Below, piece after piece: positions 11,529 to 31,587 of a stretch of DNA of 32,000 nt; position 1 is the stretch's first letter; every line of letters starts with the position of its first letter. Under the pieces are notes generated by a model that was not told where the DNA came from, did not search any database, and saw only the letters and a list, made by a program, of their open reading frames with translations. The DNA is taken from contig JBAZOV010000006.1 in the NCBI GenBank assembly GCA_041648475.1, positions 29,503-61,502 on the forward strand, written 5' to 3'. The translations under genes were made by a program, and so were the position numbers. This stretch comes from Candidatus Methanoperedens sp. GTDB lineage: Archaea > Halobacteriota > Methanosarcinia > Methanosarcinales > Methanoperedenaceae.

Positions 11529-12568
11529 GCAATATAATTACAAATAGGTCGGAACTTGTTTTTTTGTACGATGTGAAAGATGCAAATCCAAATGGAGACC
11601 CTTTGGATGAAAATAAACCAAGAATTGATGAAGAAACAGGCATCAATCTAGTAACAGATGTAAGGCTTAAGAGAACTATCCGGGACTATTTATACAATTT
11701 TAAGAAACAAGATATATTTGTACGAGAGATATCCGATGAAGAAGGCCACATTCAGGATGCAAAACAAAGAGCATCAGACTTTTTAAAACATATTCCATCA
11801 GCTGAACGAGAGGGCAAAACACTTCAGCAACAAAAAGAGATTGCTACCTCTGAAATTCTAAAACAGTGTATAGACGTGAGACTTTTCGGAGCAACAATTC
11901 CGTTGGAATTGAAAGTTAAAAAAGGAAAAAAGACCGAAAAGCCTAAAGAAGATATCATTGAACAAACTGAAAGTAAAGAACAGACAAGTTCTTTGACTTT
12001 TACAGGACCGGTTCAATTCAAGATAGGTAGATCACTCCATAAAGTATTTAATAAACACTTTAAAGGTACTGGTGCATTTGCTTCAGGAAAGGATAAGGAA
12101 CGAAAGACATTTCGGGAAGAAGATTTTCTGCCATATTCATTAATCAATTTTTATGGAATAATAAATGAAAACGCTGCAAAACATACTAAACTAACTGATG
12201 ATGATGTTAAGCTTCTTCTAGATGGTATCTGGAATGGTACAAAAAATTTAATATCAAGATCAAAAGTGGGTCAGGTTCCGAGGTTGCTTATAAAAGTGAA
12301 TTACAAAGAGAATAATTACCACATTGGTGACCTCAATAGTATGATTTCATTGATAAAAGAAGTTCCTGATGAAGAGTTGAGAGACATCTCTCAAGTTAAG
12401 ATAAATCTTACAAAAATAATCGATGTACTAAAAAACAAAAAGGATTTAATTCAAAATGTTGAATATCAAATTGATGACAGAGTAAGATTTGAATTAGAAA
12501 GTAAAGAAATCACGATTAATGAAGCCTTGAAAACCACTGGAATTCCAGCGCTGCAGTTATCATTGTAG
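11525..12568 (+). CDS. cas7: Type I-B Cas7 (Csh2 family)
   Basis: 347 aa. N-terminus 'LVFLYDVKDANPNGDPLDENKPRID' and 'DVRLFG' are hallmark Cas7/Csh2 motifs. GGAGGA SD; 4-nt overlap with cas8b. Confidence 0.9.
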   Translation: MSNIITNRSELVFLYDVKDANPNGDPLDENKPRIDEETGINLVTDVRLKRTIRDYLYNFKKQDIFVREISDEEGHIQDAKQRASDFLKHIPSAEREGKTLQQQKEIATSEILKQCIDVRLFGATIPLELKVKKGKKTEKPKEDIIEQTESKEQTSSLTFTGPVQFKIGRSLHKVFNKHFKGTGAFASGKDKERKTFREEDFLPYSLINFYGIINENAAKHTKLTDDDVKLLLDGIWNGTKNLISRSKVGQVPRLLIKVNYKENNYHIGDLNSMISLIKEVPDEELRDISQVKINLTKIIDVLKNKKDLIQNVEYQIDDRVRFELESKEITINEALKTTGIPALQLSL

Positions 12569-12573
12569 GGTAT

Positions 12574-13296
12574 ATGGATAAAATATTGGTATTCGATGTT
12601 TGGGGTGAGTATGCACATTTTAGAAAATACTATACTACAACATCGCCTCTTTCTTTTTCAATTCCACCAAGAACAGCAATTAGTGGGCTTATAGGGGCTA
12701 TCTTAGGTCTTCCAAAAGATGAATATTTGAAATATTTCTCAAAACAACAGGCACAGATTGCAGTTAGAATTCTGAATCCAATTAAAAAGGTCAGATTAGC
12801 TGAAAATCTGATTAACACAAAAGATGATTGTTTCATTCCAATCAAAAAAGGCGCCCACAGCCCTCGAACACAAATAAGGTTCGAATTTGTGAAAGATGCA
12901 AAATATAGAATATATTTCTATCATACAGATCCAAATATATTTAACAACGCAAAATCTATGCTTTTGCATCATAAATGCGTCTATACTCCATGTTTAGGAA
13001 TCACCGAACATATAGCTAATTTTGAATTCATTGGAGAAAAAGCGATTAGAGAAAAATCATCTACTGAGTTTATAAAATTGGATTCTGCTCTCCCTACTGA
13101 CTCGATCAAAGAAATCAAATTGGAAGATGGAGAATATTTTTCTGAAACCATTCCAACGGAAATGGAACTGGATAGATCATTAAAGGAATACAGAAAAGTT
13201 ATGTTTGAAAGAAACGGTGTTCAAGGAAAAGGAATAACAGCAAAAGTTGATAGATATTGGGAATTGGAAACTAATGAATCAATCATCTTTCTTTAA
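12574..13296 (+). CDS. cas5: Type I-B Cas5
   Basis: 240 aa with the Cas5 N-terminal motif 'VWGEYAHFRKYYTTTSPLSFSIPPRTAISGLIGAILG'. Confidence 0.85.
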   Translation: MDKILVFDVWGEYAHFRKYYTTTSPLSFSIPPRTAISGLIGAILGLPKDEYLKYFSKQQAQIAVRILNPIKKVRLAENLINTKDDCFIPIKKGAHSPRTQIRFEFVKDAKYRIYFYHTDPNIFNNAKSMLLHHKCVYTPCLGITEHIANFEFIGEKAIREKSSTEFIKLDSALPTDSIKEIKLEDGEYFSETIPTEMELDRSLKEYRKVMFERNGVQGKGITAKVDRYWELETNESIIFL

Positions 13297-15682
13297 TCTA
13301 AAATCCCATCCGGATAAATTTTTAATTGTTCACCTTAGAAATGTGGGTTTATTTTGTAAAAATACTATACAATCCAAGAAAATCAACTCGAATATTTTCA
13401 ATTTAAACGATGAAATCTTGGCCGATTTTTCATTTATAACAGGGGTTTCACATGATTTTGGAAAAGGAACAATTAATTTTCAAAATTACATAAATGAAAA
13501 AGACGAAAAACGAAAAAGTTCGCTTAAAAATAATCCTGAAACAAGACATGGACTACTTTCTTCGTTATTTACTTACTTTGTTATAAAAGAATCTCTTAAA
13601 GATTTAAAATTAGAATTTTTACCGATGTTAGGTTATTTTGCAGTAAAAAAACATCATGGAAACTTAGGAGATGTAACAGATGAAATCTTAGACTTAGATG
13701 ATAAAAATGTAGAAATCTTAAACCGGCAAATTAATTCTTTGTGTTTAGAAGAACTCAAACTGATTTATTTGGAATTATTACCAAATATTGATATAATTAA
13801 ATTTATTAATACCTATAAAAGCATTATCAAAGAAATCAAAAGCAACAGAAGAACTTTTTCTGATCATCTGCAAAATGAGAAATCCATCCAAGGGGATGCG
13901 CCTGGATTACAATATTATCTTTTGACACAACTTTTTTATTCTATTCTTTTAAATTCCGATAAATTAGATGCTTCGGGTATTCAAGAAATTGACCGTAATA
14001 ATGCGATTCCTATAGATTTGGTTGATAATTATCGAATAATCAAAGGCTATGATAAACCAAAAAGTAAAATGGATATTATTCGAAATGAGATTTATTCAGA
14101 TGTCATAGGAGAATTAAAAAATTTAAGTTTAGATAATAATATTTATTCCTTGAATGTTCCGACTGGAACAGGAAAAACACTTACTGCATTATCTTTTTCT
14201 TTAAAACTGAGGGATAGGATTAAAAATGAAAGACATTTCATGCCTAAAATCATATATTCACTTCCTTTTTTAAGTATTATAGATCAAAATTTCGAAGTTT
14301 TTGAAGATGTTTTTAAAAAAGTTCAGGGATATACTCCAACAACCGATATTTTATTGAAGCATCACCATTTATCTGATATTTTTTATGAAACTAATGAAAA
14401 TGTTGAATACGATACTTCTGAAAGTTTGTTACTAATTGAGGGCTGGAACTCTGAAATAATTGTAACTACTTTTATACAACTCTTCCACTCTTTAATTTCA
14501 AATAAAAATAGGTCGTTAAGAAAATTTCATAACATTATAAATTCAATTGTTATTCTTGACGAGGTTCAATCAATTCCTCATGAATATTGGCTTTTATTCA
14601 AAGAAGTTATCTCATTATTTTCAAAATGCTTCAACACTTATTTTATTTTTGTAACTGCGACGCAGCCATTGATTTTTGATGAAAGCAAGAAAGAAATTGT
14701 TGAACTTGTAAAAAATAAAAAATATTATTTTGATAAATTTGATAGAATTGAATTAATACCAAACCTTCAACCTTTGCTTCTCAATAATTTTAAAGAACTC
14801 ATAAGAAGGGATGTTGAAGAAAATAAAGATAATAATTTTCTTATTGTACTTAATACAATAAATTCTTCAAAAAGTGTCTATCAATATTTAGAATCATTAA
14901 AAATTGCAGGCACAAAATTATATTATCTTTCCACAAACATCACTCCTTGCCAGCGTCTTGATAGAATAAACGATATAAGAAATAATAAAGCACGAAAAAT
15001 AATTGTTAGCACTCAACTTATTGAAGCTGGAGTGGATATTGACGTTGATACTGTTTATCGTGACTTTTCAACGATGGATTCAATAAACCAAGTTTCTGGA
15101 AGATGCAATCGAAATTATTCAGAGGGGAAGAAAGGGCTGGTAAAATTATTTATTCTGAAAGATGAAAATAAAGAATATTATAGGTATATCTATTCACCTT
15201 TTCTGATCGATAAAACTAAAGAAGTCCTCAAAGAAGTTCCTGAAAGAATAAGTGAAAATTACTTTTTAACCTTAAGCAATAAATATTTTAAAAAAATCAA
15301 AGACAGTGGAAGTGATGACGCATCTAATAAGATCCTTTCATTTGTTCAAAAATTAGAATTTGAACAGCTATATAAAAATTTTAAACTTATACAAGATGAC
15401 TACTATAAAATCGATGTATTTATCGAATTGGACTATTTTGCTAAAGCTGTATGGAATCAATATAAGGCAATAAAAGAACTAAAAAATCCACTTGAGAGAA
15501 AAAATGAATTCTTAAAAATAAAAAAAGATTTCTATGAATACGTAATTTCAATCCCCAAAGATAAGGCACCTAAGCCTGAGAATGAAACTGGGATAGCCTA
15601 TGTTTCAATGGAAGAATTAAAATATAGGTATGATTTAGAAACTGGATTCATACCAGGGTCAGGAGGAACCTTACTGTTTTAA
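13247..15682 (+). CDS. cas3: Cas3 HD nuclease-helicase fusion
   Basis: HD motifs 'VSHDFGKGT', 'KKHHGNLGD', 'NSDKLDAS'. Helicase motifs 'NVPTGTGKT', 'VILDEVQ', 'QVSGRCNR'. The real start may be ATG 13274 (MNQSSFF...) rather than TTG 13247. Confidence 0.92.
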   Translation: MIDIGNWKLMNQSSFFNLKSHPDKFLIVHLRNVGLFCKNTIQSKKINSNIFNLNDEILADFSFITGVSHDFGKGTINFQNYINEKDEKRKSSLKNNPETRHGLLSSLFTYFVIKESLKDLKLEFLPMLGYFAVKKHHGNLGDVTDEILDLDDKNVEILNRQINSLCLEELKLIYLELLPNIDIIKFINTYKSIIKEIKSNRRTFSDHLQNEKSIQGDAPGLQYYLLTQLFYSILLNSDKLDASGIQEIDRNNAIPIDLVDNYRIIKGYDKPKSKMDIIRNEIYSDVIGELKNLSLDNNIYSLNVPTGTGKTLTALSFSLKLRDRIKNERHFMPKIIYSLPFLSIIDQNFEVFEDVFKKVQGYTPTTDILLKHHHLSDIFYETNENVEYDTSESLLLIEGWNSEIIVTTFIQLFHSLISNKNRSLRKFHNIINSIVILDEVQSIPHEYWLLFKEVISLFSKCFNTYFIFVTATQPLIFDESKKEIVELVKNKKYYFDKFDRIELIPNLQPLLLNNFKELIRRDVEENKDNNFLIVLNTINSSKSVYQYLESLKIAGTKLYYLSTNITPCQRLDRINDIRNNKARKIIVSTQLIEAGVDIDVDTVYRDFSTMDSINQVSGRCNRNYSEGKKGLVKLFILKDENKEYYRYIYSPFLIDKTKEVLKEVPERISENYFLTLSNKYFKKIKDSGSDDASNKILSFVQKLEFEQLYKNFKLIQDDYYKIDVFIELDYFAKAVWNQYKAIKELKNPLERKNEFLKIKKDFYEYVISIPKDKAPKPENETGIAYVSMEELKYRYDLETGFIPGSGGTLLF

Positions 15683-15812
15683 TTATGATTTTCCACATCT
15701 TCACCCCCGCCCCCTCTCCTCGCTTCCCCCAGGTGCGGTGCATGCGGACAGGCGGCGCAAAGAGCATACGGAGAAAACATATGATCAGGCAAACTTACCA
15801 ACGATTTAATAA

Positions 15813-15842
15813 ATCTGCGTTCATCTGCGTTTATCTGCGGTT
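15813..15842. repeat. Three phased 10-bp tandem units ATCTGCG(ttc/ttt/gtt)
   Basis: Read directly: atctgcgttc atctgcgttt atctgcggtt. The reverse-complement motif CGCAGAT also occurs twice at 2839-2845 and 2858-2864. Confidence 0.7.
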
Positions 15843-15984
15843 TGTTTTAGTCTATATTTTACCGCCATATTTCGCAAACAAACCCGCGCCTGCAAGCGAT
15901 AGCGCCGGATTTTTAACACAGTTAAATGATATATTTTTAAAAATAAACTATGCGAGGAAATATGGAATATAATACTAACCTCCA

Positions 15985-16074
15985 TAGTTTGAATAGAACA
16001 CGGATGACGCGGATCGCGCGGATTTTCGCGGATCCGTGCGCATCCGTGTCATCCGTGCAATCCGCGTTCTATCG
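15985..16074. repeat. Structured CGGAT-rich palindromic element, copy B, downstream of cas3
   Basis: Four [A/G]CGGAT units on the + strand are followed by three inverted ATCCG[T/C]G units. The outer arms are ATAGAAC (15993-15999) and GTTCTAT (16066-16072). Its first 30 nt match 9352-9381 at 29 of 30 positions. Confidence 0.7.
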
Positions 16075-16198
16075 TACGATTTCTCACCTTTTTTTATACA
16101 CCAAAGTTAACAAAACTGATAACTATGGTGCATTAAAATATAAAAATGAAATCCCAGGACAGATTTACAAACAACCATTGATTACCAGAAAACCCCGC

Positions 16199-16249
16199 CA
16201 ACGGCGGCGCACATCCGGGGTCTGGGGGTCGCAACCCCCAGCGCCGTTG
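16199..16249. other. Nested GC-rich hairpin
   Basis: Outer stem CAACGGCG (16199-16206) pairs with CGCCGTTG (16242-16249). Inner stem CTGGGGG (16222-16228) pairs with CCCCCAG (16235-16241) around the loop TCGCAA. Confidence 0.55.
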
Positions 16250-16300
16250 TTGAAGCAGATAAAGAGTGAAAATGTATAAAATAGAAATAAATAGCCATTC

Positions 16301-16308
16301 TTTAAATA
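16301..16308 (+). promoter_or_regulatory. Candidate TATA box (TTTAAATA) for the MNT-HEPN-cas6 operon
   Basis: An AT-rich box lies about 24 nt upstream of ATG 16329/16332. This would give a leaderless or near-leaderless mRNA, which is common in archaea. Confidence 0.3.
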
Positions 16309-16328
16309 ATTATAAATCAGAAGGAATA

Positions 16329-16775
16329 ATGATGAAAAATCAAATTGTTCATGTGCCAAAAATGAACGACCAAAATAAATCGAAAATAGACCTCAACGAA
16401 GTGATCCTTAAACTCAAGAGTTCCAGACTGGTTCACTCCATCATCCTTTTTGGATCAAAGGCAAGAGAAACTGAGAAAGAAAATAGCGATATAGACATAT
16501 GTGTCATTCCAAAACCTGACGTTGAAATTACACTCAAAGAGAGAATATCCATTAACAATTCTGTTCCGGAGAATATCGATATTTCATTCATAGATGAATT
16601 ACCAGTCTATATTCGTAAAAGGATTTTTCTCGAAGGGAAGGTCCTATACACGCAGGACATGTATCATGTACTAACACTTTCAAAGATCAATGACCTGGAA
16701 TATGAACGGTATAAAAGGCTCACCGGGGAGTACCATAAGCATGTAATGGAACGCATTAGAGCCAGATTGAGGTGA
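16329..16775 (+). CDS. Minimal nucleotidyltransferase (MNT), partner of HEPN
   Basis: NTase motif 'LFGSKARETEKENSDIDICV' (GS...DxD). The ORF track start 16266 adds 21 poorly protein-like residues, so I prefer ATG 16329 behind the TATA-like box. Confidence 0.8.
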   Translation: MMKNQIVHVPKMNDQNKSKIDLNEVILKLKSSRLVHSIILFGSKARETEKENSDIDICVIPKPDVEITLKERISINNSVPENIDISFIDELPVYIRKRIFLEGKVLYTQDMYHVLTLSKINDLEYERYKRLTGEYHKHVMERIRARLR

Positions 16776-16780
16776 TAATT

Positions 16781-17203
16781 ATGGATAATGATAGATTATT
16801 GGAAAAGATAGATGAAATGGAAAACTATCTGAGGGAACTTGAGGAATATCTTCCAGAACAAGAAGAAGATTATCTGAATAATGGTCTCAGGAAACGAGCA
16901 TGTGAACGTGCTTTCCAGCTGTCATGTGAGAATTTGCTTGATATATGCAATTTGATCATATCCGAGAAAGGATTTGGAATGCCGTCTGATAGTAAAGATA
17001 GTGTCAGGAAGCTTGCAGAAAATAAAATATTACCAGCGCCACTTTCAACAAGGCTTGAAGAACTTGTCGGATTTCGAAATCTTCTTGTTCATCAATATGG
17101 CCGTGTGGATGATTCGAGGTCATATTCTTTTCTAAACATGGAATTGAAGGATTTTTATGAATTTATAGAAATCATTGACAGGTACATAGAAACTAAAATA
17201 TGA
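16781..17203 (+). CDS. HEPN-domain protein (DUF86 family), toxin of the HEPN-MNT pair
   Basis: Rx4-6H motif 'FRNLLVHQY'. ATG 16781 is preceded by GGTGA (16771-16775), which overlaps the MNT stop codon. The ORF track alternative is GTG 16772. Confidence 0.85.
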   Translation: MDNDRLLEKIDEMENYLRELEEYLPEQEEDYLNNGLRKRACERAFQLSCENLLDICNLIISEKGFGMPSDSKDSVRKLAENKILPAPLSTRLEELVGFRNLLVHQYGRVDDSRSYSFLNMELKDFYEFIEIIDRYIETKI

Positions 17204-17865
17204 ACCTCAAAACCTTCACCCTCACCTTTGCCTCCAATCGTCCCATAGAAGGCACATCAACACAGCTTCGCGGCTTCTTCGCCACGAAATTCAACGAATA
17301 CACCCTTCTCCACCAGCACAACGCCGATAAATTCATTTACAGCTATCCTCTGGTACAATACAAAATGATAAACGGCGCGCCCATGGTCATCGGCATCAAT
17401 GACGGTGCCGAGGTTTTAAAACAAGTTTATGATAAATACGAAGAGATAAAACTTGGGGACGAAGTTTATGAAATCGTTGAAAGGGGCATTTCCGTAAAGA
17501 ACCAGGAATTCGGGCTCTCAGATAAGATATATTCCTATGAGTTCGCTACTCCATGGCTTGCTCTTAACCAGGAGAACTATATGAAATATTATGGTTTGAA
17601 GGATGGCGGGGAAAGGCTTGAGTTCCTGAGAAAAACACTAACTGGAAATTTGCTGTCCATGTCGAAATCACTGGAATACATGGTTCCCGATAAAATAAAA
17701 TGCGATGTACAGGTAAATATCAGGAAACGCAGATTGAAAGACGTGAACGTAATGACCTTTATCGGAGGATTCCAGGCAAACTTCATAATACCAGATTATC
17801 TCGGTTTGGGGAAATCGGTTTCAAGAGGTTTTGGCGCAGTTGTCATGAAAAATGATCTGAAATGA
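17200..17865 (+). CDS. cas6: Cas6 crRNA endoribonuclease (Cas6b-like), copy 1
   Basis: 221 aa with 'LRGFFATKF', 'LLHQH', 'YPLVQYK' and the C-terminal Gly-rich loop 'GLGKSVSRGFGAV'. ATGA overlap with the HEPN stop codon. Confidence 0.85.
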   Translation: MNLKTFTLTFASNRPIEGTSTQLRGFFATKFNEYTLLHQHNADKFIYSYPLVQYKMINGAPMVIGINDGAEVLKQVYDKYEEIKLGDEVYEIVERGISVKNQEFGLSDKIYSYEFATPWLALNQENYMKYYGLKDGGERLEFLRKTLTGNLLSMSKSLEYMVPDKIKCDVQVNIRKRRLKDVNVMTFIGGFQANFIIPDYLGLGKSVSRGFGAVVMKNDLK

Positions 17866-17950
17866 ACTTTAATAATATATACTAAAGCTGACAAATATGA
17901 TAACTCATGATAAAATGAAACAATATTATCAAAATAAAAGTGGCTGATCA

Positions 17951-19263
<1,313 letters not shown>

Positions 19264-19273
19264 GGATTGGACT

Positions 19274-19864
19274 ATGCCGGCAGGAGATACGATAATAACT
19301 ATTTCGGATGTGCTTGAATACCTTTTCTGCCCGCGTTTTATTTATTTCATGCATTGTCTTGACATCCCGCAGAATGAGGGATCAAGGTTCAAGGTCATAA
19401 AAGGCAGAGAAGTGCATGATGAAAAACGAATTACAAACACCGAATACCTGAGAAAGAAGCTTGGCGTTGTCAAAAAAGAAATTAATGTTTTCATAGCCTC
19501 GAAAAACCACCATATCAAAGGGATCGTGGATGAGATCCTTTTCCTGGATGATGGAACTGCGGCACCTTTTGAATATAAGTATGCTGAATTCAAGGATACT
19601 ATATTCCAGACTTATAAATTCCAGCTTGTGCTTCATGCAATGATGATCAAAGAGAACTATAATATCGATGTAAAAAAAGGTTTCATCTGTTTCACAAGAA
19701 GCAATAATCATATAGAAGAAATTGTTTTTACAGAAAAAGACTTCAAGAAAGGCATCGAGATCATTGATGAAATCCTTGAGATCATTGACAAAGGCTTTTA
19801 TCCGGGAAAGTCCAAATATAAGAATAAGTGCATTGATTGCTGTTACAGCAACATCTGTGTCTGA
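19274..19864 (+). CDS. cas4: Cas4 (RecB-like nuclease with Fe-S Cys cluster)
   Basis: 196 aa with N-terminal 'CPRFIYF', D-EYK nuclease core ('VDEILFLDDG...PFEYKY') and C-terminal 'CIDCCYSNIC'. Confidence 0.9.
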   Translation: MPAGDTIITISDVLEYLFCPRFIYFMHCLDIPQNEGSRFKVIKGREVHDEKRITNTEYLRKKLGVVKKEINVFIASKNHHIKGIVDEILFLDDGTAAPFEYKYAEFKDTIFQTYKFQLVLHAMMIKENYNIDVKKGFICFTRSNNHIEEIVFTEKDFKKGIEIIDEILEIIDKGFYPGKSKYKNKCIDCCYSNICV

Positions 19865-19972: not shown

Positions 19973-22900
19973 ATTCGAGAGGCACATCCACTAAAACAAG
20001 GATTGAAACACCAATAATTCTTCGATATCATGTTATCATCCCCATATTCGAGAGGCACATCCACTAAAACAAGGATTGAAACCAGTTGAAGCAATAGTTG
20101 TATTTACAACGTTTGAAATTCGAGAGGCACATCCACTAAAACAAGGATTGAAACCAAAGTCGAGTCATTCACGCATAGCGTGGGCTTGATTCGAGAGGCA
20201 CATCCACTAAAACAAGGATTGAAACTTTGTTTCTGGATCTCTTCTATAACTTGAGCTTCAATTCGAGAGGCACATCCACTAAAACAAGGATTGAAACATT
20301 ATGTTCATGCTTTCATACCCCCCTTAAATCAACATTCGAGAGGCACATCCACTAAAACAAGGATTGAAACGTCATAAGTATTTCAAGATGCCTGATGGCT
20401 TTGAAGAATTCGAGAGGCACATCCACTAAAACAAGGATTGAAACCGAGCTAAGGAACCACGGCGACTCAGGAGGATACGATTCGAGAGGCACATCCACTA
20501 AAACAAGGATTGAAACCATACACCCCACACATTTGTGTTTCATGCCAGCATATTCGAGAGGCACATCCACTAAAACAAGGATTGAAACTCGATACCAACC
20601 AATGTCCGGAGTTTAAACCCCTTAATTCGAGAGGCACATCCACTAAAACAAGGATTGAAACTTTGTTTCTGGATCTCTTCTATAACTTGAGCTTCAATAA
20701 TTCGAGAGGCACATCCACTAAAACAAGGATTGAAACCAACGACAGCCAGTGATGTTTTATTGGACTCCGCTATTCGAGAGGCACATCCACTAAAACAAGG
20801 ATTGAAACCGAGCTAAGGAACCACGGCGACTCAGGAGGATACGCGAATTCGAGAGGCACATCCACTAAAACAAGGATTGAAACTCATTCATGCTTTCACC
20901 TCGATCTTAACCTGCTGACATTCGAGAGGCACATCCACTAAAACAAGGATTGAAACATCGGATTAATCCCTCTTTCATTGTTTGTACCTCCAATTCGAGA
21001 GGCACATCCACTAAAACAAGGATTGAAACATCGGGACGGCATGTTGACATGGGTTCGACTCCCAATTCGAGAGGCACATCCACTAAAACAAGGATTGAAA
21101 CAGAGGTTTGTGGCTTGCGTGTGGCCTAAGTCATTCACAGATTCGAGAGGCACATCCACTAAAACAAGGATTGAAACTATCTTCAATGAAGCTAAGAAGC
21201 AACAAGGGGAAGAATTCGAGAGGCACATCCACTAAAACAAGGATTGAAACTAAATTAAATTTACATCGTCTGATAATGATATACATTCGAGAGGCACATC
21301 CACTAAAACAAGGATTGAAACATCTCAAAGAAAGGAAAAAGAAATCGTGAGATTATAATTCGAGAGGCACATCCACTAAAACAAGGATTGAAACCATGGA
21401 TGCAGTCAGGCGATCAGAAGTTTTCATCATATTCGAGAGGCACATCCACTAAAACAAGGATTGAAACTCCCTATACGCCCCTTGTAGCGATGCTGACCGG
21501 GTATTCGAGAGGCACATCCACTAAAACAAGGATTGAAACCATTTGAGCCGTAAACGCTTATGTTTGAAGTTGCGTATTCGAGAGGCACATCCACTAAAAC
21601 AAGGATTGAAACATATTTGGTGTTGAATTGACAAAAAGTAATGATGTATTCGAGAGGCACATCCACTAAAACAAGGATTGAAACATTAGTATCGAGGGCG
21701 GTGCAACTTTAGCTACAAAATTCGAGAGGCACATCCACTAAAACAAGGATTGAAACTTTAACCTCCTCATAATAAGAGTATTTTGCGTTTTAAATTCGAG
21801 AGGCACATCCACTAAAACAAGGATTGAAACTATGGGCGCGACCAGTTGCCAGTATAATCGAACAGAATTCGAGAGGCACATCCACTAAAACAAGGATTGA
21901 AACAGTAATTCCTCTGGGAACAGCGGAGTAAATCCCGATTATTCGAGAGGCACATCCACTAAAACAAGGATTGAAACAACGGATATTGCAGATACCGAGC
22001 GGGAGATCCGGGATTCGAGAGGCACATCCACTAAAACAAGGATTGAAACGAAAAGAACCACGATACACCACCTCCCAAGCCCTCTATTCGAGAGGCACAT
22101 CCACTAAAACAAGGATTGAAACTCAGTATGCTCTTCATGTGGTATTAAGACTGATATATTCGAGAGGCACATCCACTAAAACAAGGATTGAAACCTGATG
22201 ATGTTGGGGATATTAAAGACAAGCTGACAAGATTCGAGAGGCACATCCACTAAAACAAGGATTGAAACTTTATAGCAGTAGCGACTAATAATTCACAGTC
22301 ACATTCGAGAGGCACATCCACTAAAACAAGGATTGAAACTGCCAGTCATGCGCTAACAATGAAGATGCAAGTATATTCGAGAGGCACATCCACTAAAACA
22401 AGGATTGAAACTTCTATTGATAGGGGGCATTCTTGGAACGCTATATATTCGAGAGGCACATCCACTAAAACAAGGATTGAAACCCTGTTGAGCGTTACCT
22501 TCGCTACTAATGCTGTATATTCGAGAGGCACATCCACTAAAACAAGGATTGAAACCTATAATATGATAACGAGGCTGCATCTACTTGTGTTGATTCGAGA
22601 GGCACATCCACTAAAACAAGGATTGAAACTCTGTATATACTAATGATGTGGCCGTAACTTCACTATTCGAGAGGCACATCCACTAAAACAAGGATTGAAA
22701 CTTGATGAGAATTTCGAATTTGATATTGAGGTTGAAATTCGAGAGGCACATCCACTAAAACAAGGATTGAAACTTTGATCTTCTGGTTTCATATTTGCTC
22801 CAAAAATTTATTCGAGAGGCACATCCACTAAAACAAGGATTGAAACAGCATCGTTCGCTGAAGGTGCCTGATAAAATAGAATTCGAGAGGCACATCCACT

Positions 22901-24516
22901 AAAACAAGGATTGAAACACAGCGTATACTCGTATCAGGAGGAATAGAGAATGGTATTCGAGAGGCACATCCACTAAAACAAGGATTGAAACAATATATAA
23001 TACTGATGGAACAAAATATGCTGCGCTTGAATTCGAGAGGCACATCCACTAAAACAAGGATTGAAACTCATGACGGCTCAAATGAAAGATGATTATATTG
23101 TATTCGAGAGGCACATCCACTAAAACAAGGATTGAAACTTGACGGCTAAAATCAAGCTGTCAGTAATCTCTTTTATTCGAGAGGCACATCCACTAAAACA
23201 AGGATTGAAACATTCACTGCGTCAACAGCTTCAACGTGGGTGAGCTGATTCGAGAGGCACATCCACTAAAACAAGGATTGAAACTAAGTAGAGAGGTAAA
23301 TACTCTATGGTAAAATCAATATTCGAGAGGCACATCCACTAAAACAAGGATTGAAACTTCCAAATTCATTATTTCCATCTATATACTCGTCTAATTCGAG
23401 AGGCACATCCACTAAAACAAGGATTGAAACATTATATCTTTGTCTGTATTATATTGTTCTAAACATATTCGAGAGGCACATCCACTAAAACAAGGATTGA
23501 AACAAAAGAAGTTACTTACCTTAGGTGATATTTCTGTTGAATTCGAGAGGCACATCCACTAAAACAAGGATTGAAACCATGGATTATAATGGGACAGCTT
23601 TCCATTTAGTGAAATTCGAGAGGCACATCCACTAAAACAAGGATTGAAACTATCCGATAGCGAAAATAAGACCTAACCCCTCCATGAATTCGAGAGGCAC
23701 ATCCACTAAAACAAGGATTGAAACTAAAAGCGTTTATTCGAGTACTAAAACCACAATGGAATTCGAGAGGCACATCCACTAAAACAAGGATTGAAACTCT
23801 CATCTTGAAAACTATAAATTAAGAAGATTGTAATTCGAGAGGCACATCCACTAAAACAAGGATTGAAACTCGCTATGGAAAATTGGCTTATTAGAGTAAG
23901 GTCATTCGAGAGGCACATCCACTAAAACAAGGATTGAAACATACTTTGTTGTTATCGTTTCCAACTCCTTCCCAGATTCGAGAGGCACATCCACTAAAAC
24001 AAGGATTGAAACTTTAAAATGTAGATTATCGCAAAGGGTAAACATTATTCGAGAGGCACATCCACTAAAACAAGGATTGAAACCCATTTTATTCCTCCTA
24101 ATTTTACCTTGTTTCAGGATTCGAGAGGCACATCCACTAAAACAAGGATTGAAACAATTAAGCATTGTGAACCTGATAATTCAATAATAGGATTCGAGAG
24201 GCACATCCACTAAAACAAGGATTGAAACGTCATATCTTTCGTTTCTTCGGTGTTTTCTTGCCATATTCGAGAGGCACATCCACTAAAACAAGGATTGAAA
24301 CTTAATAGAACGTGATGAGAATGAAAATAGACAGAAATTCGAGAGGCACATCCACTAAAACAAGGATTGAAACCTTCAAGGCTGATATCGTCGGTTGTCG
24401 CTGCTGGTATTCGAGAGGCACATCCACTAAAACAAGGATTGAAACAAAATAGTATATTGCCATCCGTTGCGGTTGGCGTATTCGAGAGGCACATCCACTA
24501 AAACAAGGATTGAAAT
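19973..24516 (+). CRISPR. CRISPR array: 63 repeats of 37 nt (ATTCGAGAGGCACATCCACTAAAACAAGGATTGAAAC) and 62 spacers of 34-39 nt
   Basis: I walked every repeat start by hand. Repeat plus spacer lengths sum exactly to 4544 nt. The last repeat (24480-24516) ends ...GAAAT instead of ...GAAAC. The ATTGAAAC 3' end gives the canonical 8-nt crRNA 5' handle. From memory, the repeat resembles the Methanosarcina 37-nt repeat family. Confidence 0.98.
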
Positions 24517-24603: not shown

Positions 24604-26772
24604 TTGATGGTCGAAGATGAATTAATTCCGGAACTTCATGATATTGGAAAGTTGATTGATTGGGAAACAATTAATCCTGATATCAAAGGACATAATTTCG
24701 AAAACGTGAATATGAATAATATTATTCATATTCAAGAACCATCAAACAAAACTTGGAAAGGTATAAAACTACACCACAAGAAAAGTGGAGATATTGATAT
24801 TTTTATATTAAAGCTTGCAGACCATATAGCATCTGGAATTTCAAGAGCACTTCCCGAAGATGTCAAAGATAGAATTAATCGTATATTTAAATGGGATAAA
24901 ATCCCTGGAACAGATGATGATAAACTTCGGCGTTTCCTTATTGATGAATTGAATATCTCTTGGGCAGATGAATCATCATTTATTAAGAGTTCTGAAAATA
25001 AAATTATACTGTCCTCTAAAGGGAAATTTGTCGATATTACAAGAGACGATATTACAAAAAAAGCCATTTTACGAATTCATGATGGTAGAACCTATGAGTT
25101 AAGTATCCTCAAGAATAAAGAAGACGAGATAGAGATTCATAGACAAAAAATCGATAAGTCTTTTCAAAAGCTATGGAATGAACGACCAAAAAATTCTGAA
25201 TTATTCTCAACAAAAGACCAGTTAAAGGAAATAATCGAGTATATTAAAAAAGACAATTCTGGAGAATTATTCCTTGCAAATGATTTGTTCCATAAAAAAT
25301 TATTATCAACACCTGAAGACCAGATGCCTCCCATGAATATTACCAGTTTATATACTCATTCAAAACTTGTGGGAAAACTTTATTATTTCTTCAAACCATT
25401 GGTTACTGACATTAATTGCGAAAATAATTTATTGCAGTTTAGGTCTTCCGATGAATCAATAAATGTCCAAAATGCTGAAAGAAAATGGGATTTGGGTAGG
25501 AATATAAAAAATGCGGAAACAAATTGGGATATTAAATTATTATATTGTAAGATTAACTTTCCTGATTATCAAGCACGAGTTCGAGATTTAAATATTTTTG
25601 AACTACTAAAAAAGGAATTAGAAAAGTTATCTAAAGCTAAAAATGTAATATTGCAAACATCCGACCAATTCTTAGCATTCCTACCTGTGGATAAAAAAAT
25701 TGATGATTTGGTAAAACCATTTATAGAAAAAGGATTCAATATATATGTGGAAGAAGCCATAACCAAATTACAGGAAGCCACTCCCACCCCAAGAGCTATC
25801 AAACAAAGAAAAATGAACACTGGTCTCTCAATAGATGGAAATAGTAATTTTGATGTCCAATTCTCATGCTATACTAAATACAAATATATGGAGCCATTAA
25901 TAGACCCACATATTTGTGAAATATGCCAGTTAGCTCCTGCATCTGAACCACCATGGATTGATGAAGGACTGGTCGAAAATATTTGTGTATCTTGTCGAAA
26001 AATTAGAGAATATGATGAATCCGTAGCCCCACAATTAAAAGATTGGTATCAAAGCGAACAGCTCTCAAAGGTCGCTTGGATTAAAATTTACTTGGATATT
26101 AATTTATTAAGTGATATTCTTAAAAAACTATACAAATCATATAGTGATAAATACATAAAAGATATAGATTTGAAAGCTGAAATTGAACAGAAAGATTTAT
26201 ACGAATTACATTTCTCTGTCCTTACAGAATTTCAGCAAGATTATGATGATTTCCTAATAGATTTCAATAAAAAAATCGAATACAAATTTAAACTTGAAAA
26301 TATTCAGCCGATTCTTAACGATTTTATTTGCGTAAAAATTGAAAGAACAAGCCAAATAAAAGATATACTTGAAATATACAACCAGCTTTTCACAAATTAT
26401 TTTCCACAATTGAAAGACCAAAAATCTCCAGTTACTCTTTCGATTTCAGTGTCCAATGTAAAATTTGCCTTTTTCAGGCATTGGAAAAACTTTGAAAACC
26501 CAAAAAATGATGTGAATGTAAATCTCATTGGAAGGGGCGAAATGCACCTTTCTTTAAACCTGCTCGAAAAACTAATACACGAGTTCAAAATACCTGCATC
26601 CAAGCAACTGCACAAGCTTGCAAAGATTTCTGAAGCCTCAGAAAAACTGGCAAAAGTTCTTGTTTATGACAGAGGAGATTATAGAGTTTATGAATCGGTC
26701 AGAGTTCTGAGCAATAAGATTGATTTTAAAACAATTCTGACATATGCAAAAATCATGGGGGATGAAGAATGA
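24604..26772 (+). CDS. cas10: Cas10-like large subunit: HD domain intact, cyclase (GGDD) motif absent
   Basis: 722 aa. Motifs in order: 'ELHDIGKL' (H12-D13), 'LKLADHIASGISR', 'ITSLYTHSKLVGKLYYF', 'TSDQFLAFLP', 4-Cys 'CEICQ...CVSCRK', 'VAWIKIYLDINLL'. 'PILNDFICV' sits where GGDD is expected. No GGDD/GGDEF string occurs anywhere in the protein. Confidence 0.8.
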   Translation: MMVEDELIPELHDIGKLIDWETINPDIKGHNFENVNMNNIIHIQEPSNKTWKGIKLHHKKSGDIDIFILKLADHIASGISRALPEDVKDRINRIFKWDKIPGTDDDKLRRFLIDELNISWADESSFIKSSENKIILSSKGKFVDITRDDITKKAILRIHDGRTYELSILKNKEDEIEIHRQKIDKSFQKLWNERPKNSELFSTKDQLKEIIEYIKKDNSGELFLANDLFHKKLLSTPEDQMPPMNITSLYTHSKLVGKLYYFFKPLVTDINCENNLLQFRSSDESINVQNAERKWDLGRNIKNAETNWDIKLLYCKINFPDYQARVRDLNIFELLKKELEKLSKAKNVILQTSDQFLAFLPVDKKIDDLVKPFIEKGFNIYVEEAITKLQEATPTPRAIKQRKMNTGLSIDGNSNFDVQFSCYTKYKYMEPLIDPHICEICQLAPASEPPWIDEGLVENICVSCRKIREYDESVAPQLKDWYQSEQLSKVAWIKIYLDINLLSDILKKLYKSYSDKYIKDIDLKAEIEQKDLYELHFSVLTEFQQDYDDFLIDFNKKIEYKFKLENIQPILNDFICVKIERTSQIKDILEIYNQLFTNYFPQLKDQKSPVTLSISVSNVKFAFFRHWKNFENPKNDVNVNLIGRGEMHLSLNLLEKLIHEFKIPASKQLHKLAKISEASEKLAKVLVYDRGDYRVYESVRVLSNKIDFKTILTYAKIMGDEE

Positions 26773-27797
26773 ATTTCTTTAAGTTTGATTTTAGTTCTGA
26801 ATTGCTCATTCTTGGAGAAAGATTTAAAAAAGGACAGTATCGCCCTGTTATCACAACAATTCCTTATAGCCAGATTACAGGCGCGCTTCAGGCGAAATTT
26901 GGAAACAGCAAAAATGCCGATAAGTCAAAGCAAATCCATGCATGTGGACATTTTTTATATAAAGATGAGGATGAATTCAAGGAGAATCACATTAAGACGC
27001 TCACCTATTCCCCTCGAAACAGGTCAACTGATACCAGTATAATTCCTATTTATACCGAATATCTTCATCGTGTAAAAGGCGAGGTATATCTGAAAGAAAA
27101 TGAAGATGTAAAAGAGATATTATCTCAGAAAGGAGAGATAAGTTTCTGGATGGGCGGATTGAAATCCAAAGGTTTTGGGGAGTGTAAACTAATTAATAAA
27201 GAAATTGTTCCCCGTGCTGATTCCAGAGAAGGTGAATTAAATACCAGATTGCCACTTTTTAAGCTTAATGATGCGAATTTTGAAGCTGGAAAAGAGGAAA
27301 TTGAAAAACTTGTTGAAGAAGGCAAGCCAACCAGATTCTTACATGATGTTTTTGGAATTGAACGGGTGAAAACAGCAAATTTCGGATATCTTTTTGAACC
27401 TACATCAGAAACAGATGGTAAGTATGTGCTTTCATTATTTGAAGGCAGCATAGTTGAAGCGCCAGGATTTTTATTGAAAATAAAGGGTGAAAAAAAGATG
27501 GAAGATCAAACAGAGGATGTTGCCGCAAAGGTTATTGAAGAAATTAAGAAAAATGTAAATATTGAATCTATTAAACAGAGATCAAATAAGTTCCTGAATA
27601 CTGTTGGGGATATTTTCGAAAAGGAAGGTCCAACCATGACCAGGGCATTTTTGAAGGAGAAAAAGAGCAGAAGAGGTATGGAGCAACAGGCAGAAACGCT
27701 TCTTCATGTACTTGGAATCATTGAAAAATATCCATCTATAGACAGAAAAACTGCACGGTTTATAATAAAAAGTTTGATAAGTATAAAGGAGGTTTGA
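26769..27797 (+). CDS. Cas5-like RAMP (Csm4/Cmr3/Csx10-like) with a helical C-terminal extension
   Basis: 342 aa with 'IPYSQITGALQAKFG' and the Gly-rich loop 'GGLKSKGFGECKL'. The last ~100 aa are charged and helical. 4-nt overlap with the cas10-like gene. Confidence 0.6.
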   Translation: MNFFKFDFSSELLILGERFKKGQYRPVITTIPYSQITGALQAKFGNSKNADKSKQIHACGHFLYKDEDEFKENHIKTLTYSPRNRSTDTSIIPIYTEYLHRVKGEVYLKENEDVKEILSQKGEISFWMGGLKSKGFGECKLINKEIVPRADSREGELNTRLPLFKLNDANFEAGKEEIEKLVEEGKPTRFLHDVFGIERVKTANFGYLFEPTSETDGKYVLSLFEGSIVEAPGFLLKIKGEKKMEDQTEDVAAKVIEEIKKNVNIESIKQRSNKFLNTVGDIFEKEGPTMTRAFLKEKKSRRGMEQQAETLLHVLGIIEKYPSIDRKTARFIIKSLISIKEV

Positions 27798-27801
27798 GAA
27801 A

Positions 27802-28605
27802 ATGATTGAACAAAAAGAATATGAAATTGAATTGACAACTTTAGAACCTATTCGAATCGGGGGAATAGCAAATCCCTTATCGGGAATAGATAACCCGATA
27901 GCTCTTGTGGGCAATGAGGTGGTTGTTCCGGGTTCTACCCTCAAAGGTGCTTACCGCTGCGAAATTGAGAGATACCTGATTGATACCTATTTAGATCGTG
28001 TTGCAAAAAAATGGTCGGATAAAAATCTTCAACCTTGCATACCTTCAACAAAGCTTTCTCCTGATGAAAATCAGCTTGTGGTGAATGGGTTATATAGATT
28101 CTATAACTTAATCCCTCCGAAAGGAGGAGATATAGGAGATATCAAAGGAGAAGGCTGTCACTATCCATGCCATGGAAAATGCAACGAACTGCATGAGATT
28201 TGTCCGGTTTGTTATTTCCTCGGGGCAAATGGACTTGAAGGATTCGTAAAGGTGCCTTTTTTGTATGCAAAAACAGCAGTTAATGAACTATATTCGGCAA
28301 ATATTGATCGGGCAATCCAGACTGTAAAACAGGGGACAAACAGACCATACCAATTGGTGCCTGACGGTATTAAATTCACAGGTACCTTGACAGTTATTCT
28401 TAAAGACACTATTAGAGATAGGGAACTTGGAAAAGCGAGAAATCTTAAAGAGTATACTGGAGGAGATGCATGGCTTGCAAAGCCACGGTCAAGAGATGAT
28501 CTCATCAAGGAGTTTATTATTGACCGCTTTGTGAATATAAAAACCATTGGTGGTTACAAGTCAAAGGGATTTGGAAAGGTGGATATAAAAATAAAACAAA
28601 AATGA
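27802..28605 (+). CDS. Cas7 of the Csm3/Cmr4 type (single backbone subunit)
   Basis: 267 aa with 'GIDNPIAL' (D30), 'VPGSTLKGAYR', 'CPVCYFLGANG' and terminal 'GGYKSKGFGKVDI'. Strong AGGAGGT SD. Confidence 0.8.
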   Translation: MIEQKEYEIELTTLEPIRIGGIANPLSGIDNPIALVGNEVVVPGSTLKGAYRCEIERYLIDTYLDRVAKKWSDKNLQPCIPSTKLSPDENQLVVNGLYRFYNLIPPKGGDIGDIKGEGCHYPCHGKCNELHEICPVCYFLGANGLEGFVKVPFLYAKTAVNELYSANIDRAIQTVKQGTNRPYQLVPDGIKFTGTLTVILKDTIRDRELGKARNLKEYTGGDAWLAKPRSRDDLIKEFIIDRFVNIKTIGGYKSKGFGKVDIKIKQK

Positions 28606-28671
28606 AATATAATAATTTATAACTATATATGACTTAGGCGCCATATAGGATCAGTGTAGAACACAAAAAAA

Positions 28672-29331
28672 ATGGACATCCAGACTCTAACTCTAATCCT
28701 GAAAACAAAATACCCGGTAACGGAAAGCCCTGAAAAATTGCGGGGCTTCATCGGGAACAGATTCAAAAACCATCCTATTCTGCATCAGCATGCCGAAAAT
28801 GGTAAGAACTATTATCAATATCCAAAAGTTCAATACAAAATAATCGGAGGTACTCCTGTAATATTTGGAATCGAAGAAGGGGTAGAAATTTTGGAAAATA
28901 TATCGAAAGATATTGAAGTTCTCACTATTGGAAGTAAGAATTACATGATTGAAGAAAAACAGGTCATAACGAAAAAACAGGAATTTGGATGTTCTGATAC
29001 ATTTTTCCAGTACAGGTTTATAGTCCCCTGGTTAGCCTTGAATGAGACAAATTATGAGTCATATTTGAAGTCAGACCAAAAAAATAAAGTTGAACTCTTA
29101 CATAAAGTCTTAGCTGGCAATCTTCTCTCAATTTCTAAATCTCTTGGATATGTAGTGCTTGACCAGATCAAAGTTAAAACAAAATTATCTCCCATAAAAG
29201 TTTATTCAAAAGGTATTCCACTAATTGGTTTTGAGGGAGAATTCCAAACAAATTTCAAGATTCCTGATTATCTTGGTATTGGCAGATCAGTTTCACGGGG
29301 CTTTGGAGTTGCTCGTAGATGCAGCCTTTAA
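28672..29331 (+). CDS. cas6: Cas6 paralog, copy 2 (Cas6b-like)
   Basis: 219 aa, collinear with Cas6 at 17200-17865: 'LRGFIGNRF', 'ILHQH', 'YPKVQYK', 'VPWLALNETNY', 'GNLLSISKSLGY', 'IPDYLGIGRSVSRGFGV'. Confidence 0.85.
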   Translation: MDIQTLTLILKTKYPVTESPEKLRGFIGNRFKNHPILHQHAENGKNYYQYPKVQYKIIGGTPVIFGIEEGVEILENISKDIEVLTIGSKNYMIEEKQVITKKQEFGCSDTFFQYRFIVPWLALNETNYESYLKSDQKNKVELLHKVLAGNLLSISKSLGYVVLDQIKVKTKLSPIKVYSKGIPLIGFEGEFQTNFKIPDYLGIGRSVSRGFGVARRCSL

Positions 29332-29384: not shown

Positions 29385-30593
29385 ATGGATCTCAACAATT
29401 TCATAATCCTCTTCATCTTCAGCATAACCATCCCAATACTTTACATAAAACTTGTTTCAGGCTTTGTGGTTTCAATCATAGACCGACTCATAAATGCCAA
29501 TTTTGAGCTAAATCCAAATAAGTTCATTAATCTTGTAATAGGATACGGTATCGGGGCTCTCCTATTTTCATATATTTTTCATCAGTTCTTCAAGTATGGC
29601 GTAATATCCCTTACAGAAATCTCAAATGCCAGTCTCACAATGCCTTTCCTGGCTCTCACCTTCTGCTATTTCGCTCGAGTCATAACCAGGAGGAATGGGC
29701 GTTTTTCCGGGCGCATTTATGTCAGCGGGGTAACAGCCATTGCATCCCTGATATTCCTGGTCAATACCGCTATCGGATTAAAATCTCTTGGCGAGACACC
29801 TTCCGGTCTTTTCACTCAAATTTTTGCAATTGGTAGTGGACTTGAAAGCAGCCTGATCACAAGGATCGAACTTTCTCTGGAGTTCTTGAAAAGCTGGATA
29901 CCCACCATTACTCTGGGCAGTGTGTTAATGGCAACCTTCGGGGAACTGGCTGTCGTTCATTTCATGAAACCCAATATAAGATCACTCACTGCAGTGCTTG
30001 AGAAATTTCCATCTGACTTTTCGGTGATAACAGGAAATAACCAGATCGAGAATAAAATGAAGGAAATGACATCCCAGGGTGATGTTCTTTCCATCAAATG
30101 CATAACGAATACTTATAAAGCATTTGACACGATCCATTCAAACCTGGAGACACAGTGGAGGATATTATCCGGAAAAAATATCGTACCTGATTACAGGATT
30201 ATCGGGTCATCCCGGCAGGAGATCAAGGAATATTTCAATAAAAAGAAAATCACAAATTTCGGAACGATCCTCGGAAAGATATATCAAAAATTGATGCCTG
30301 GATACTATGCTGGTTATTTGACCCGCGAAGAAAAGGATGTTGAGAAACGAATTTCAAAACTAAGGGAAATGCGTAATGAAGGTCGAATTAAACATCTTGA
30401 TACAAGTTTTGGCAGATTCAAGATGCTTCTTGTTAATGATAATGAAGTAATTTTCACGGTATTGAGTGGAAAAAATGAGACGATAGGACTGTACACAAAA
30501 GAAAAATATATTCTATTTCTTTGTTTAAAATTATTCGATGATACGTGGGAACGTAATCAAACTGCAGATGTGCTTAATAAAAAGACTAATTAA
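29385..30593 (+). CDS. Multi-pass membrane protein with a ~200-aa C-terminal soluble domain, unknown function
   Basis: 402 aa with about 5-6 hydrophobic segments in residues 1-195, followed by a soluble domain with a duplicated '[IV]LSGKN' string. Co-oriented, 53 nt after cas6 copy 2. Confidence 0.6.
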   Translation: MDLNNFIILFIFSITIPILYIKLVSGFVVSIIDRLINANFELNPNKFINLVIGYGIGALLFSYIFHQFFKYGVISLTEISNASLTMPFLALTFCYFARVITRRNGRFSGRIYVSGVTAIASLIFLVNTAIGLKSLGETPSGLFTQIFAIGSGLESSLITRIELSLEFLKSWIPTITLGSVLMATFGELAVVHFMKPNIRSLTAVLEKFPSDFSVITGNNQIENKMKEMTSQGDVLSIKCITNTYKAFDTIHSNLETQWRILSGKNIVPDYRIIGSSRQEIKEYFNKKKITNFGTILGKIYQKLMPGYYAGYLTREEKDVEKRISKLREMRNEGRIKHLDTSFGRFKMLLVNDNEVIFTVLSGKNETIGLYTKEKYILFLCLKLFDDTWERNQTADVLNKKTN

Positions 30594-30978: not shown

Positions 30979-31015
30979 ATTCGAGAGGCACATCCACTAA
31001 AACAAGGATTGAAAC
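30979..31015 (+). repeat. Solitary CRISPR repeat identical to the array consensus
   Basis: All 37 nt match the consensus, in the same orientation as the array. It lies 6462 nt downstream of the terminal repeat, and I found no second repeat after it. Confidence 0.95.
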
Positions 31016-31044: not shown

Positions 31045-31587
31045 CTACTTGGAGTTAGAGAATTTTTTGAGGACAGCCAAAAGCCCTTCGTCCTTTGCCT
31101 TTTCGGTTAAATATTCAAAATCGACCCTGCTCTGGTAATATCGAAGCAGGTAATGAGCTTGTTTGCAGTCCGTTTCTGATTTCCATTCATGGCAGGCTGC
31201 CAGCCTATCTATGATCAAGTCCTCGATCCCAATTATATAGAGTTTTAAACCCTCAACAGTCATCGTTGTTATTTTGTCTTTGCTTCCAGCTAAGTAATCC
31301 CCCGGCACTTCTATGAAAATACCTATTGTTTCATCGATCCAATGCCTTCCGCTGCGTTTAAATCCAAACGTATTCTCAAGGATATCACCGATTATTTTCC
31401 GGCTTCCTACAAGGTCTATATCATAACTCTGGAAAACACCGTTCGTATAGAAATCAACTGCTGACCCGCCCACAACGATAGGTTTTATGTTTTTTTTCTC
31501 AGTTTCACGGGTAAGGAGTGACATGAAATACGCTTTTTTATCTACCAGATTTTTGATGGATAATATTTTTTGTAATTCGGGGATCAC
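31045..31587 (-). CDS. Nucleotidyltransferase-fold protein, putative toxin partner of the AbrB antitoxin
   Basis: 180 aa with 'IVVGGSAVDFYTNGVFQSYDIDLVG' (G[GS]...DxD NTase motif). GTG start overlaps the upstream AbrB gene stop (GTGA). Confidence 0.6.
   Translation of the reverse strand: MIPELQKILSIKNLVDKKAYFMSLLTRETEKKNIKPIVVGGSAVDFYTNGVFQSYDIDLVGSRKIIGDILENTFGFKRSGRHWIDETIGIFIEVPGDYLAGSKDKITTMTVEGLKLYIIGIEDLIIDRLAACHEWKSETDCKQAHYLLRYYQSRVDFEYLTEKAKDEGLLAVLKKFSNSK

Follow-up and report, generated by a model that had tools for sequence, protein, structure and literature searches.

A probable subtype III-F CRISPR effector module with a fused Cas5-Cas11 gene at the distal end of a type I-B array in Candidatus Methanoperedens

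Directly after the CRISPR array of a type I-B system in a metagenome-assembled genome (MAG) of Candidatus Methanoperedens lie four co-oriented genes, which raise the question of whether they form an effector module of a known subtype or a reduced variant that has not been described. The locus was analysed within a 32,000-nt window (the whole stretch of DNA under study, hereafter "the window") of contig JBAZOV010000006.1, assembly GCA_041648475.1. An earlier note on this DNA had read the four genes as a Cas10 with an intact HD domain and a dead cyclase, a Cas5-like protein, a single Cas7 and a second Cas6, and had suggested that together they may be an undescribed reduced variant. The four open reading frames (ORFs) were present as described (24604-26772, 26769-27797, 27802-28605 and 28672-29331), and every string that had been quoted was found in their translations. 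In the public annotation cas10 starts at ATG 24607, one codon later, and the product is a 721-amino acid (aa) 'hypothetical protein' otherwise identical to that of the 722-aa ORF; Cas10 residues are given in the 722-aa numbering throughout. We conclude that the four genes very probably constitute a subtype III-F effector module with its own cas6b at the distal end of a I-B array, acting by the mechanism proposed below.

Subtype assignment of the four genes

Pfam and NCBIfam recognised only Cas6b and, weakly, a RAMP protein (Cas7), and gave no match for the Cas10 and Cas5-Cas11 proteins. Subtype-specific PADLOC models matched all of the effector proteins, namely Cas10a|Cas10f, Cas5_IIIf, Cas11f and Cas7_IIIf (E-values in Table 1). 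The sole Cas10 model passing E<=1 was PDLC01558 (Cas10a|Cas10f), which matched relatives at 1e-111 to 1e-126, and Csm3 models matched the Cas7 protein far more weakly (4.5e-13) than did Cas7_IIIf (2.2e-58). The same III-F models also matched relatives whose cas5 and cas11 are not joined. The content of III-F, that is cas10, cas5, cas11 and a single cas7, is present. As all of the genes matched III-F models and Cas11 was found as a fused domain, the gene set is therefore that of subtype III-F. This subtype was reportedly defined by Makarova et al. in 2020, with Tlet_0097-0100 of Thermotoga lettingae as its reference locus. III-F systems are generally HD-positive and always without cyclase motifs and effectors (PMC11229360).

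The PADLOC and Pfam profile searches, of a kind that the earlier note had proposed, upheld its Cas10, Cas7, Cas5 and Cas6 assignments. Its statement that cas11 is missing was correct for a separate gene, and Cas11f is present as a domain fused to Cas5. No second RAMP ORF equivalent to Csm5, Cmr1 or Cmr6 was found in the module by the ORF list, Pfam, NCBIfam or PADLOC, so that the Cas7_IIIf protein is its only RAMP ORF and the absence of further cas7 paralogues is confirmed. The same is true of CARF, SAVED, Csm6 and Csx1, for which no family match was obtained in the scanned ORFs of the window (most ORFs of at least 80 aa not nested in larger genes).

Three other placements were considered and rejected. 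For type IV-C, the sole type IV match was the marginal one of typeIV_Cas7 (1.7e-4), confined to 25 residues in the Gly-rich loop at the end of Cas7, and no Csf3 match was found. In III-H, Cas11 takes the place of the Cas10 C-terminal domain, there is no other Cas11, and the catalytic Asp of Cas7 is not conserved (PMC12669027); III-H was ruled out by a Cas11f fused to Cas5 rather than to Cas10 and by a Cas7 D30 that is kept in the clade. III-A was ruled out by the lack of GGDD, Csm5 and Csm6 and by the weaker Csm3 match. The idea of an undescribed reduced variant was therefore abandoned, all of the genes falling within the defined subtype III-F with the same gene content, and the question of classification is closed: the locus is III-F, and no new subtype is needed. 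What is new stands at the level of the lineage, namely the Cas5-Cas11 fusion, the kept Cas7 Asp, the accompanying cas6b, a repeat bracket around the genes and an insertion in Cas10.

A scan of one genome per species yielded 49 related loci (L001 and following) from many archaeal and bacterial phyla, in which the order cas10-cas5-cas11-cas7 is kept wherever the contig extends far enough. The family comprises two clades, both of which match the III-F models. In the clade of the window Cas11f is short (87-position profile) and Cas7 measures 245-272 aa; in the second clade Cas11f is long (167-position profile) and Cas7 measures 275-315 aa. Among 1.84 billion cluster representatives, a census gave 677 matches at E<=1e-3 and 112 at E<=1e-30, a few of them owed to the insertion in Cas10 rather than to Cas10 itself.

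Table 1. Features of the locus, with positions in the window
Feature	Position	Strand	Evidence or remark
cas10f, large subunit	24607..26772 (ORF from 24604)	+	PADLOC 9e-98, Foldseek, residue conservation
Cas5f domain of fused gene, residues 1-236	26769..27476	+	Cas5_IIIf 3.5e-42; beta-rich fold
Cas11f domain of fused gene, from M244	27498..27797	+	Cas11f short profile 1.7e-19, residues 253-341
cas7f, sole Cas7 gene of the module	27802..28605	+	Cas7_IIIf 2.2e-58; Pfam RAMPs
cas6b, second crRNA-processing endonuclease	28672..29331	+	Pfam Cas6b_N, Cas6b_C
Complete type I-B system: cas8b, cas7, cas5, cas3, two small ORFs, MNT/HepT, cas6b, cas1, cas2, cas4	9702..19864	+	Pfam matches
CRISPR array: 63 repeats of 37 nt (ATTCGAGAGGCACATCCACTAAAACAAGGATTGAAAC), 62 spacers of 34-39 nt	19973..24516	+	
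Old degenerate in-frame copy of MITE-like element in cas10, Cas10 residues ~91-183	24877..25152	+	module profile 1.6e-27
ORF402, 402 aa, N-terminal half hydrophobic	29385..30593	+	inside repeat-bracketed segment
Solitary perfect copy of the CRISPR repeat	30979..31015	+	missed by the earlier note

Cas10f, the Cas5-Cas11 fusion and Cas7f

The identity of the 722-aa protein as Cas10 was confirmed by a Foldseek search against the PDB, in which the top ~40 matches were all Cas10/Csm1 (E ~1e-10) and the closest solved fold was the Cas10 of a type III-A Csm complex; sequence matches to solved Cas10s were marginal. Structure modelling used database homologues in place of locus-derived sequences, and the AlphaFold model of Cas10f (predicted local distance difference test, pLDDT, 77; predicted template modelling score, pTM, 0.79) places a compact N-terminal HD domain (~1-92), the insertion (~91-183), Palm1, a Cys4 zinc knuckle (438-464), Palm2 and a short C-terminal domain of four helices (651-719) in this order. 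The HD residues are intact as claimed, and among full-length homologues H12 was conserved in 137/142, D13 in 136/142, H30 in 134/142, H57 in 120/142 and D73 in 141/142; the four cysteines of the knuckle (C438, C441, C461 and C464) were invariant in an alignment of 13 sequences. The string 'PILNDFICV', which had been assigned to the site of the cyclase loop, corresponds in the model to a beta-hairpin of Palm2 (strands 567-571 and 574-579) whose turn, N572-D573, stands where GGDD sits in active Cas10s. GGDD is absent from the Cas10 of the window and occurs at the hairpin position in none of the 142 homologues. The term 'cyclase-dead' therefore holds as far as the loss of GGDD is concerned; a full loss of nucleotidyl-transferase activity would go beyond this, and acidic residues remain.

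The 342-aa protein had been called Cas5-like, which is right for its N-terminal part (the Cas5_IIIf match covers residues 3-171) and misses a C-terminal Cas11f of ~90 residues that matches the 87-position profile. In the structural model residues 1-236 form a beta-rich domain, 240-249 a disordered linker and 251-341 a helical bundle. The fold of the Cas5f domain matched Cas5 chains of types I, III and VII, and the best structural match of the whole fusion was the fusion chain of III-Dv. When aligned across the junction, the two parts of the fusion correspond to cas5 and cas11 as they stand apart in relatives, and separate cas11 genes of 90-98 aa occur at the same place in L004, L005, L037, L040 and L041. 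Fusion of the two genes is seen in the Methanoperedens loci L001-L003 and, as an independent event, in L007. Fusions make up about 25 of the 120 Cas5 clusters listed, and Methanoperedenaceae also have unfused forms of ~240 aa.

By analogy with III-Dv, in which a tethered Cas11 is functional and the Cas10 C-terminus acts as a further small subunit (PMC11026444), the fusion would imply one tethered Cas11 per complex. In the alignment, an internal ATG at 27498, the codon of M244, falls on the codon at which the separate cas11 genes start; it lies 7 nt past GGGTGA and is kept in 5/5 fused lineages. Of these, only the window and L002 show a clear Shine-Dalgarno-like motif, which is weaker in L001 and L003 and lacking in L007. 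That translation from this codon yields a free Cas11 besides the fusion is possible, and we regard it as rather doubtful.

Cas7f had been described as a Csm3/Cmr4-type Cas7 with D30 as candidate catalytic residue, and D30 indeed aligned to the 'DNP' Asp of solved Csm3 and III-D Cas7 chains. In an alignment of the Cas7 genes of L001-L048, the catalytic position was D or E in 15/15 members of the window's clade (11 D and 4 E, the alignment of L033 being borderline) and Lys in 15/17 of the second clade. Judged by this residue, RNA cleavage by Cas7 in the window's clade is likely, and the distribution of Asp and Lys predicts such cleavage in the first, short-Cas11f clade of III-F only. As to the fourth gene, the claim of a second Cas6 was borne out, both Cas6 proteins of the window being Cas6b with 44% identity. 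A cas6b also directly follows cas7f in L001, L003, L005 and L027, and thus cas6b travels with the III-F genes.

Compared with Methanoperedens relatives, the ratio of non-synonymous to synonymous substitution rates (dN/dS) was 0.08-0.27 for all four genes, and the module is therefore maintained by purifying selection. Between the window (24607-28605) and L001 and L003, cas10 shared 54-60% aa identity with a synonymous rate (dS) of 1.2-1.7, and cas5-11 and cas7 shared 84-89% with a dS of 0.23-0.35. Because cas10 has diverged far beyond cas5-11 and cas7 between the same pairs of genomes, the comparison suggests that the cas10 allele may have been replaced through recombination inside the operon.

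A shared array, the proposed mechanism and competing explanations

The leader side of the array is oriented to the cas4 of the I-B system. Its repeats are identical in 62 of 63 cases, the sole altered one (C to T) being the last, and from this degenerate repeat at the far end it follows that the array is transcribed on the + strand, toward the four III-F genes. Array and cas genes run in the same direction, and 88 bp separate the array end from cas10. The array is presumed to be the source of CRISPR RNA (crRNA) common to I-B and III-F, and adaptation for it is supplied by the I-B system. The earlier proposal that the module would borrow its crRNAs from the adjacent I-B array is well supported by conserved synteny in relatives. 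L001 and L003 show the same succession of array, III-F genes and cas6b, and their repeat is identical to that of the window or nearly so. In L011 (1573-12162) the III-F genes lie between I-B cas7 and cas5, in L027 (3857-16809) between cas3 and cas6-cas1-cas2-cas4, and in L006, L034, L045 and L046 after I-B genes. III-F modules are thus joined to or embedded in I-B loci on the same strand, and many related loci are flanked by arrays whose repeats, read on the cas strand, end in ATTGAAAC or CTGAAAG. This habitual embedding of III-F in I-B loci suggests a general two-tier arrangement working on one set of spacers.

In the mechanism that we propose, Cas6b would cleave the transcript of the array 8 nt ahead of the end of each repeat, leaving the handle AUUGAAAC. 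Cas5f would bind this 8-nt handle, several copies of Cas7f would coat the spacer, and Cas10f and Cas11f would complete the complex. Pairing with a complementary transcript would then activate the HD nuclease of Cas10 on nearby single-stranded DNA, and D30 of Cas7 would cut the bound RNA at 6-nt steps and so reset the complex. Neither cyclic oligoadenylate nor an accessory effector would be involved. The module would in this way add to I-B a second line of interference that uses the same spacers, depends on transcription and is independent of a protospacer-adjacent motif (PAM).

Several points weigh against the assignment to III-F with this mechanism. The 2020 classification gives the target of III-F as 'DNA?' (table reproduced in PMC8036902). 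Literature searches found no experimental paper on III-F, and a search by sequence found no solved III-F structure. The best PADLOC model for Cas10 carries a mixed name, so that the III-F assignment of this protein would rest partly on its partner genes. A foreign segment of 90 aa lies within Cas10, and the three newest spacers matched none of the viral contigs. Finally, acidic residues (D/E) persist at both metal-ligand positions of Palm2, in 114/142 homologues at D573 (26319-26321) and in 107/142 at D498 (26094-26096). These residues may have a structural or residual nucleotide-binding role, and from them it could be envisaged that even without GGDD the Palm domain has kept some non-canonical function, either in nucleotide binding or as a transferase. 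The hairpin, however, is devoid of glycines, and a CARF/SAVED gene was found neither among the window ORFs scanned nor in reports of published III-F loci, which makes such a function quite unlikely.

The 'DNA?' entry and the Lys of the large second clade, from which it follows that at least part of III-F can do without RNA cleavage, would also fit a DNA-directed effector whose Cas7 does not cut RNA and whose HD nuclease is the sole activity. For the present locus this seems unlikely, given that all 15 members of its clade carry D or E in a 'DNP'-type loop aligned with the catalytic loops of Csm3; moreover, all characterised Cas10-containing systems known to us sense RNA. The insertion and the fusion might instead be taken as steps in the degradation of a relic, as the foreign segment interrupts Cas10 and cas10 is much more diverged than its neighbours. 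In contrast to what would be expected of decay, all of the ORFs are intact with their catalytic residues kept, dN/dS is low in each, the insertion falls in the HD-Palm1 linker and is kept in frame in three diverged homologues, and the fused Cas5-Cas11 form occurs in some 25 protein clusters; a relic is thus very improbable. As for an undescribed type III or IV-C-like variant lacking Cas11, the failure of Pfam and NCBIfam to recognise Cas10, its marginal sequence matches to solved Cas10s and the want of a separate cas11 gene could be cited in its favour. Set against these, the strong III-F-specific matches of all the genes, the fused Cas11f whose junction aligns with the separate genes of relatives, the marginal type IV match and the different build of III-H render it extremely improbable. 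The assignment to III-F with the proposed mechanism is thus retained.

The inserted element, neighbouring features and known systems

Cas10 residues ~91-183, which are absent from most Cas10f homologues and had escaped the earlier note, matched repeated segments of unrelated proteins in the census. The module of ~88 aa, which has no Pfam family, is predicted to consist of two short helices and a five-strand beta meander. Its hosts include a STAND NTPase (6-8 copies), a GAF protein, a pentapeptide-repeat protein, an Sm protein, a DnaK fragment and many small ORFs, and in metagenome loci a baseplate-J-like protein, a subtilase and other unrelated genes. The I-B Cas3 of L003 carries it as a clean in-frame insertion (1030-1299), and another Cas3 carries it in L107. 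The anatomy of the underlying element was derived from 69 metagenome loci (L051-L119) found with a narrower subfamily profile, the broad profile being too diverse. Copies in different genes share 92-95% nucleotide identity with unrelated flanks, and the ends, GTATTTGTTTAGCT...AGCTAAACATATAC, form a 14-bp imperfect inverted repeat with 13/14 positions matching. A target-site duplication of 8 bp, perfect or with one mismatch, was found at 23/53 sites as against 4/2000 controls, with no signal at other lengths. The modal length is 262 bp, which with the 8-bp duplication makes 270 bp, so that every insertion lengthens its host gene in frame by exactly 90 codons; on each strand one frame of the consensus is open.

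The element is short and multicopy, has terminal inverted repeats and a target-site duplication and lacks a transposase, in keeping with a transposable element of the miniature inverted-repeat class (MITE). The copy in cas10 of the window is itself degenerate and old, with no recognisable flanking repeats. No copy of the module was found in viral contigs, and literature searches turned up no description of such an element for Methanoperedens. Tentatively, and with reserve, we regard the Cas10f segment as a member of an undescribed family of in-frame, domain-encoding MITEs of Methanoperedens-like archaea, perhaps put to use in defence proteins, and suppose that the repeat-bracketed cassette may move between arrays by repeat recombination. 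An in-frame MITE would mean transposon-driven insertion of a segment predicted to fold into working proteins, two CRISPR nucleases among them.

The bracket in question consists of the array and the solitary repeat, which enclose a 6.46-kb segment holding cas10f, cas5-11f, cas7f, cas6b and ORF402. The same bracket is found in L001, where the solitary repeat (5186-5222, 2 mismatches) lies 94 nt past cas6 and ORF402 is missing. It may possibly reflect insertion into the array, movement via repeat-repeat recombination or trimming of the cas mRNA by Cas6. A cassette between direct CRISPR repeats also resembles a giant spacer. ORF402 had no family match in Pfam, NCBIfam or PADLOC and no homologue among the 49 related loci, and in L001 the solitary repeat directly follows cas6; on these three grounds it was ruled out as a III-F accessory gene.

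The left part of the window holds genes for PCNA, primase, BioY, a histidine kinase and HisF, and the region is therefore chromosomal. Inside the I-B operon, between cas3 and cas6b, lies an MNT/HepT nucleotidyltransferase-RNase toxin-antitoxin pair (16266-17203), whose position is kept in L003 (1788-2665). The interval from cas3 to this pair is taken up by two small overlapping ORFs of 95 and 109 aa (15685-16279) with no family match. Directly past the solitary repeat, the - strand (31045-31844) carries a small ORF, whose weak match is MazE-like, and after it a DUF6036 nucleotidyltransferase gene; the two are probably another toxin-antitoxin pair. A promoter and terminator scan of the window gave a signal below shuffle expectation, the consensus sequences being bacterial and the host an archaeon.

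Among known mobile elements, the Rickettsia palindromic elements are likewise short and non-autonomous, insert in frame into unrelated coding genes and add a conserved peptide (PMC10969869). They are, however, ~150 bp long, whereas the element described here is archaeal, measures 262 bp, is bounded by clear inverted ends of 14 bp, makes an 8-bp duplication and encodes an ~88-aa segment predicted to fold.

Among CRISPR systems, the III-A Csm complex resembles the module in its Csm3-like Cas7 and in the presumed logic of its crRNA handle, and differs in having GGDD, Csm5, a separate multi-copy Csm2 and Csm6 signalling. III-H, as defined in the 2023/2025 classification, is a distant relative of III-F and is also reduced, HD-positive, cyclase-inactive and without accessory effectors; in contrast to III-H, the present locus has a recognisable Cas11f joined to Cas5 and retains the Cas7 Asp. 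The III-Dv system of Synechocystis, with its Cas7-Cas5-Cas11 fusion (PDB 8s9t-8s9x), shares the covalent joining of Cas5 and Cas11 by a flexible linker, which has ~20 residues there and ~10-15 here. It has a single Cas11 domain per complex, with the Cas10 C-terminus as second small subunit (PMC11026444). III-Dv differs in that Cas7 is fused as well, in its several specialised Cas7 genes and Csx19, and in belonging to another subtype.

The likeness is greatest to III-F itself, as represented by Tlet_0097-0100, in which cas10, cas5, cas11 and a single cas7 occur together with an HD domain, without a cyclase motif and without CARF or SAVED proteins. With a Cas6 of its own, an array of 62 spacers and standard handle, only three effector genes and a Cas7 that looks competent as an RNase from its sequence, the locus would suit the first biochemical study of III-F. 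In contrast to other III-F loci, cas5 and cas11 are one gene here, the Cas7 Asp is kept and Cas10 carries a transposon-derived insertion; and whereas most III-F loci have been reported without arrays, this module has its own cas6b and an adjoining array.

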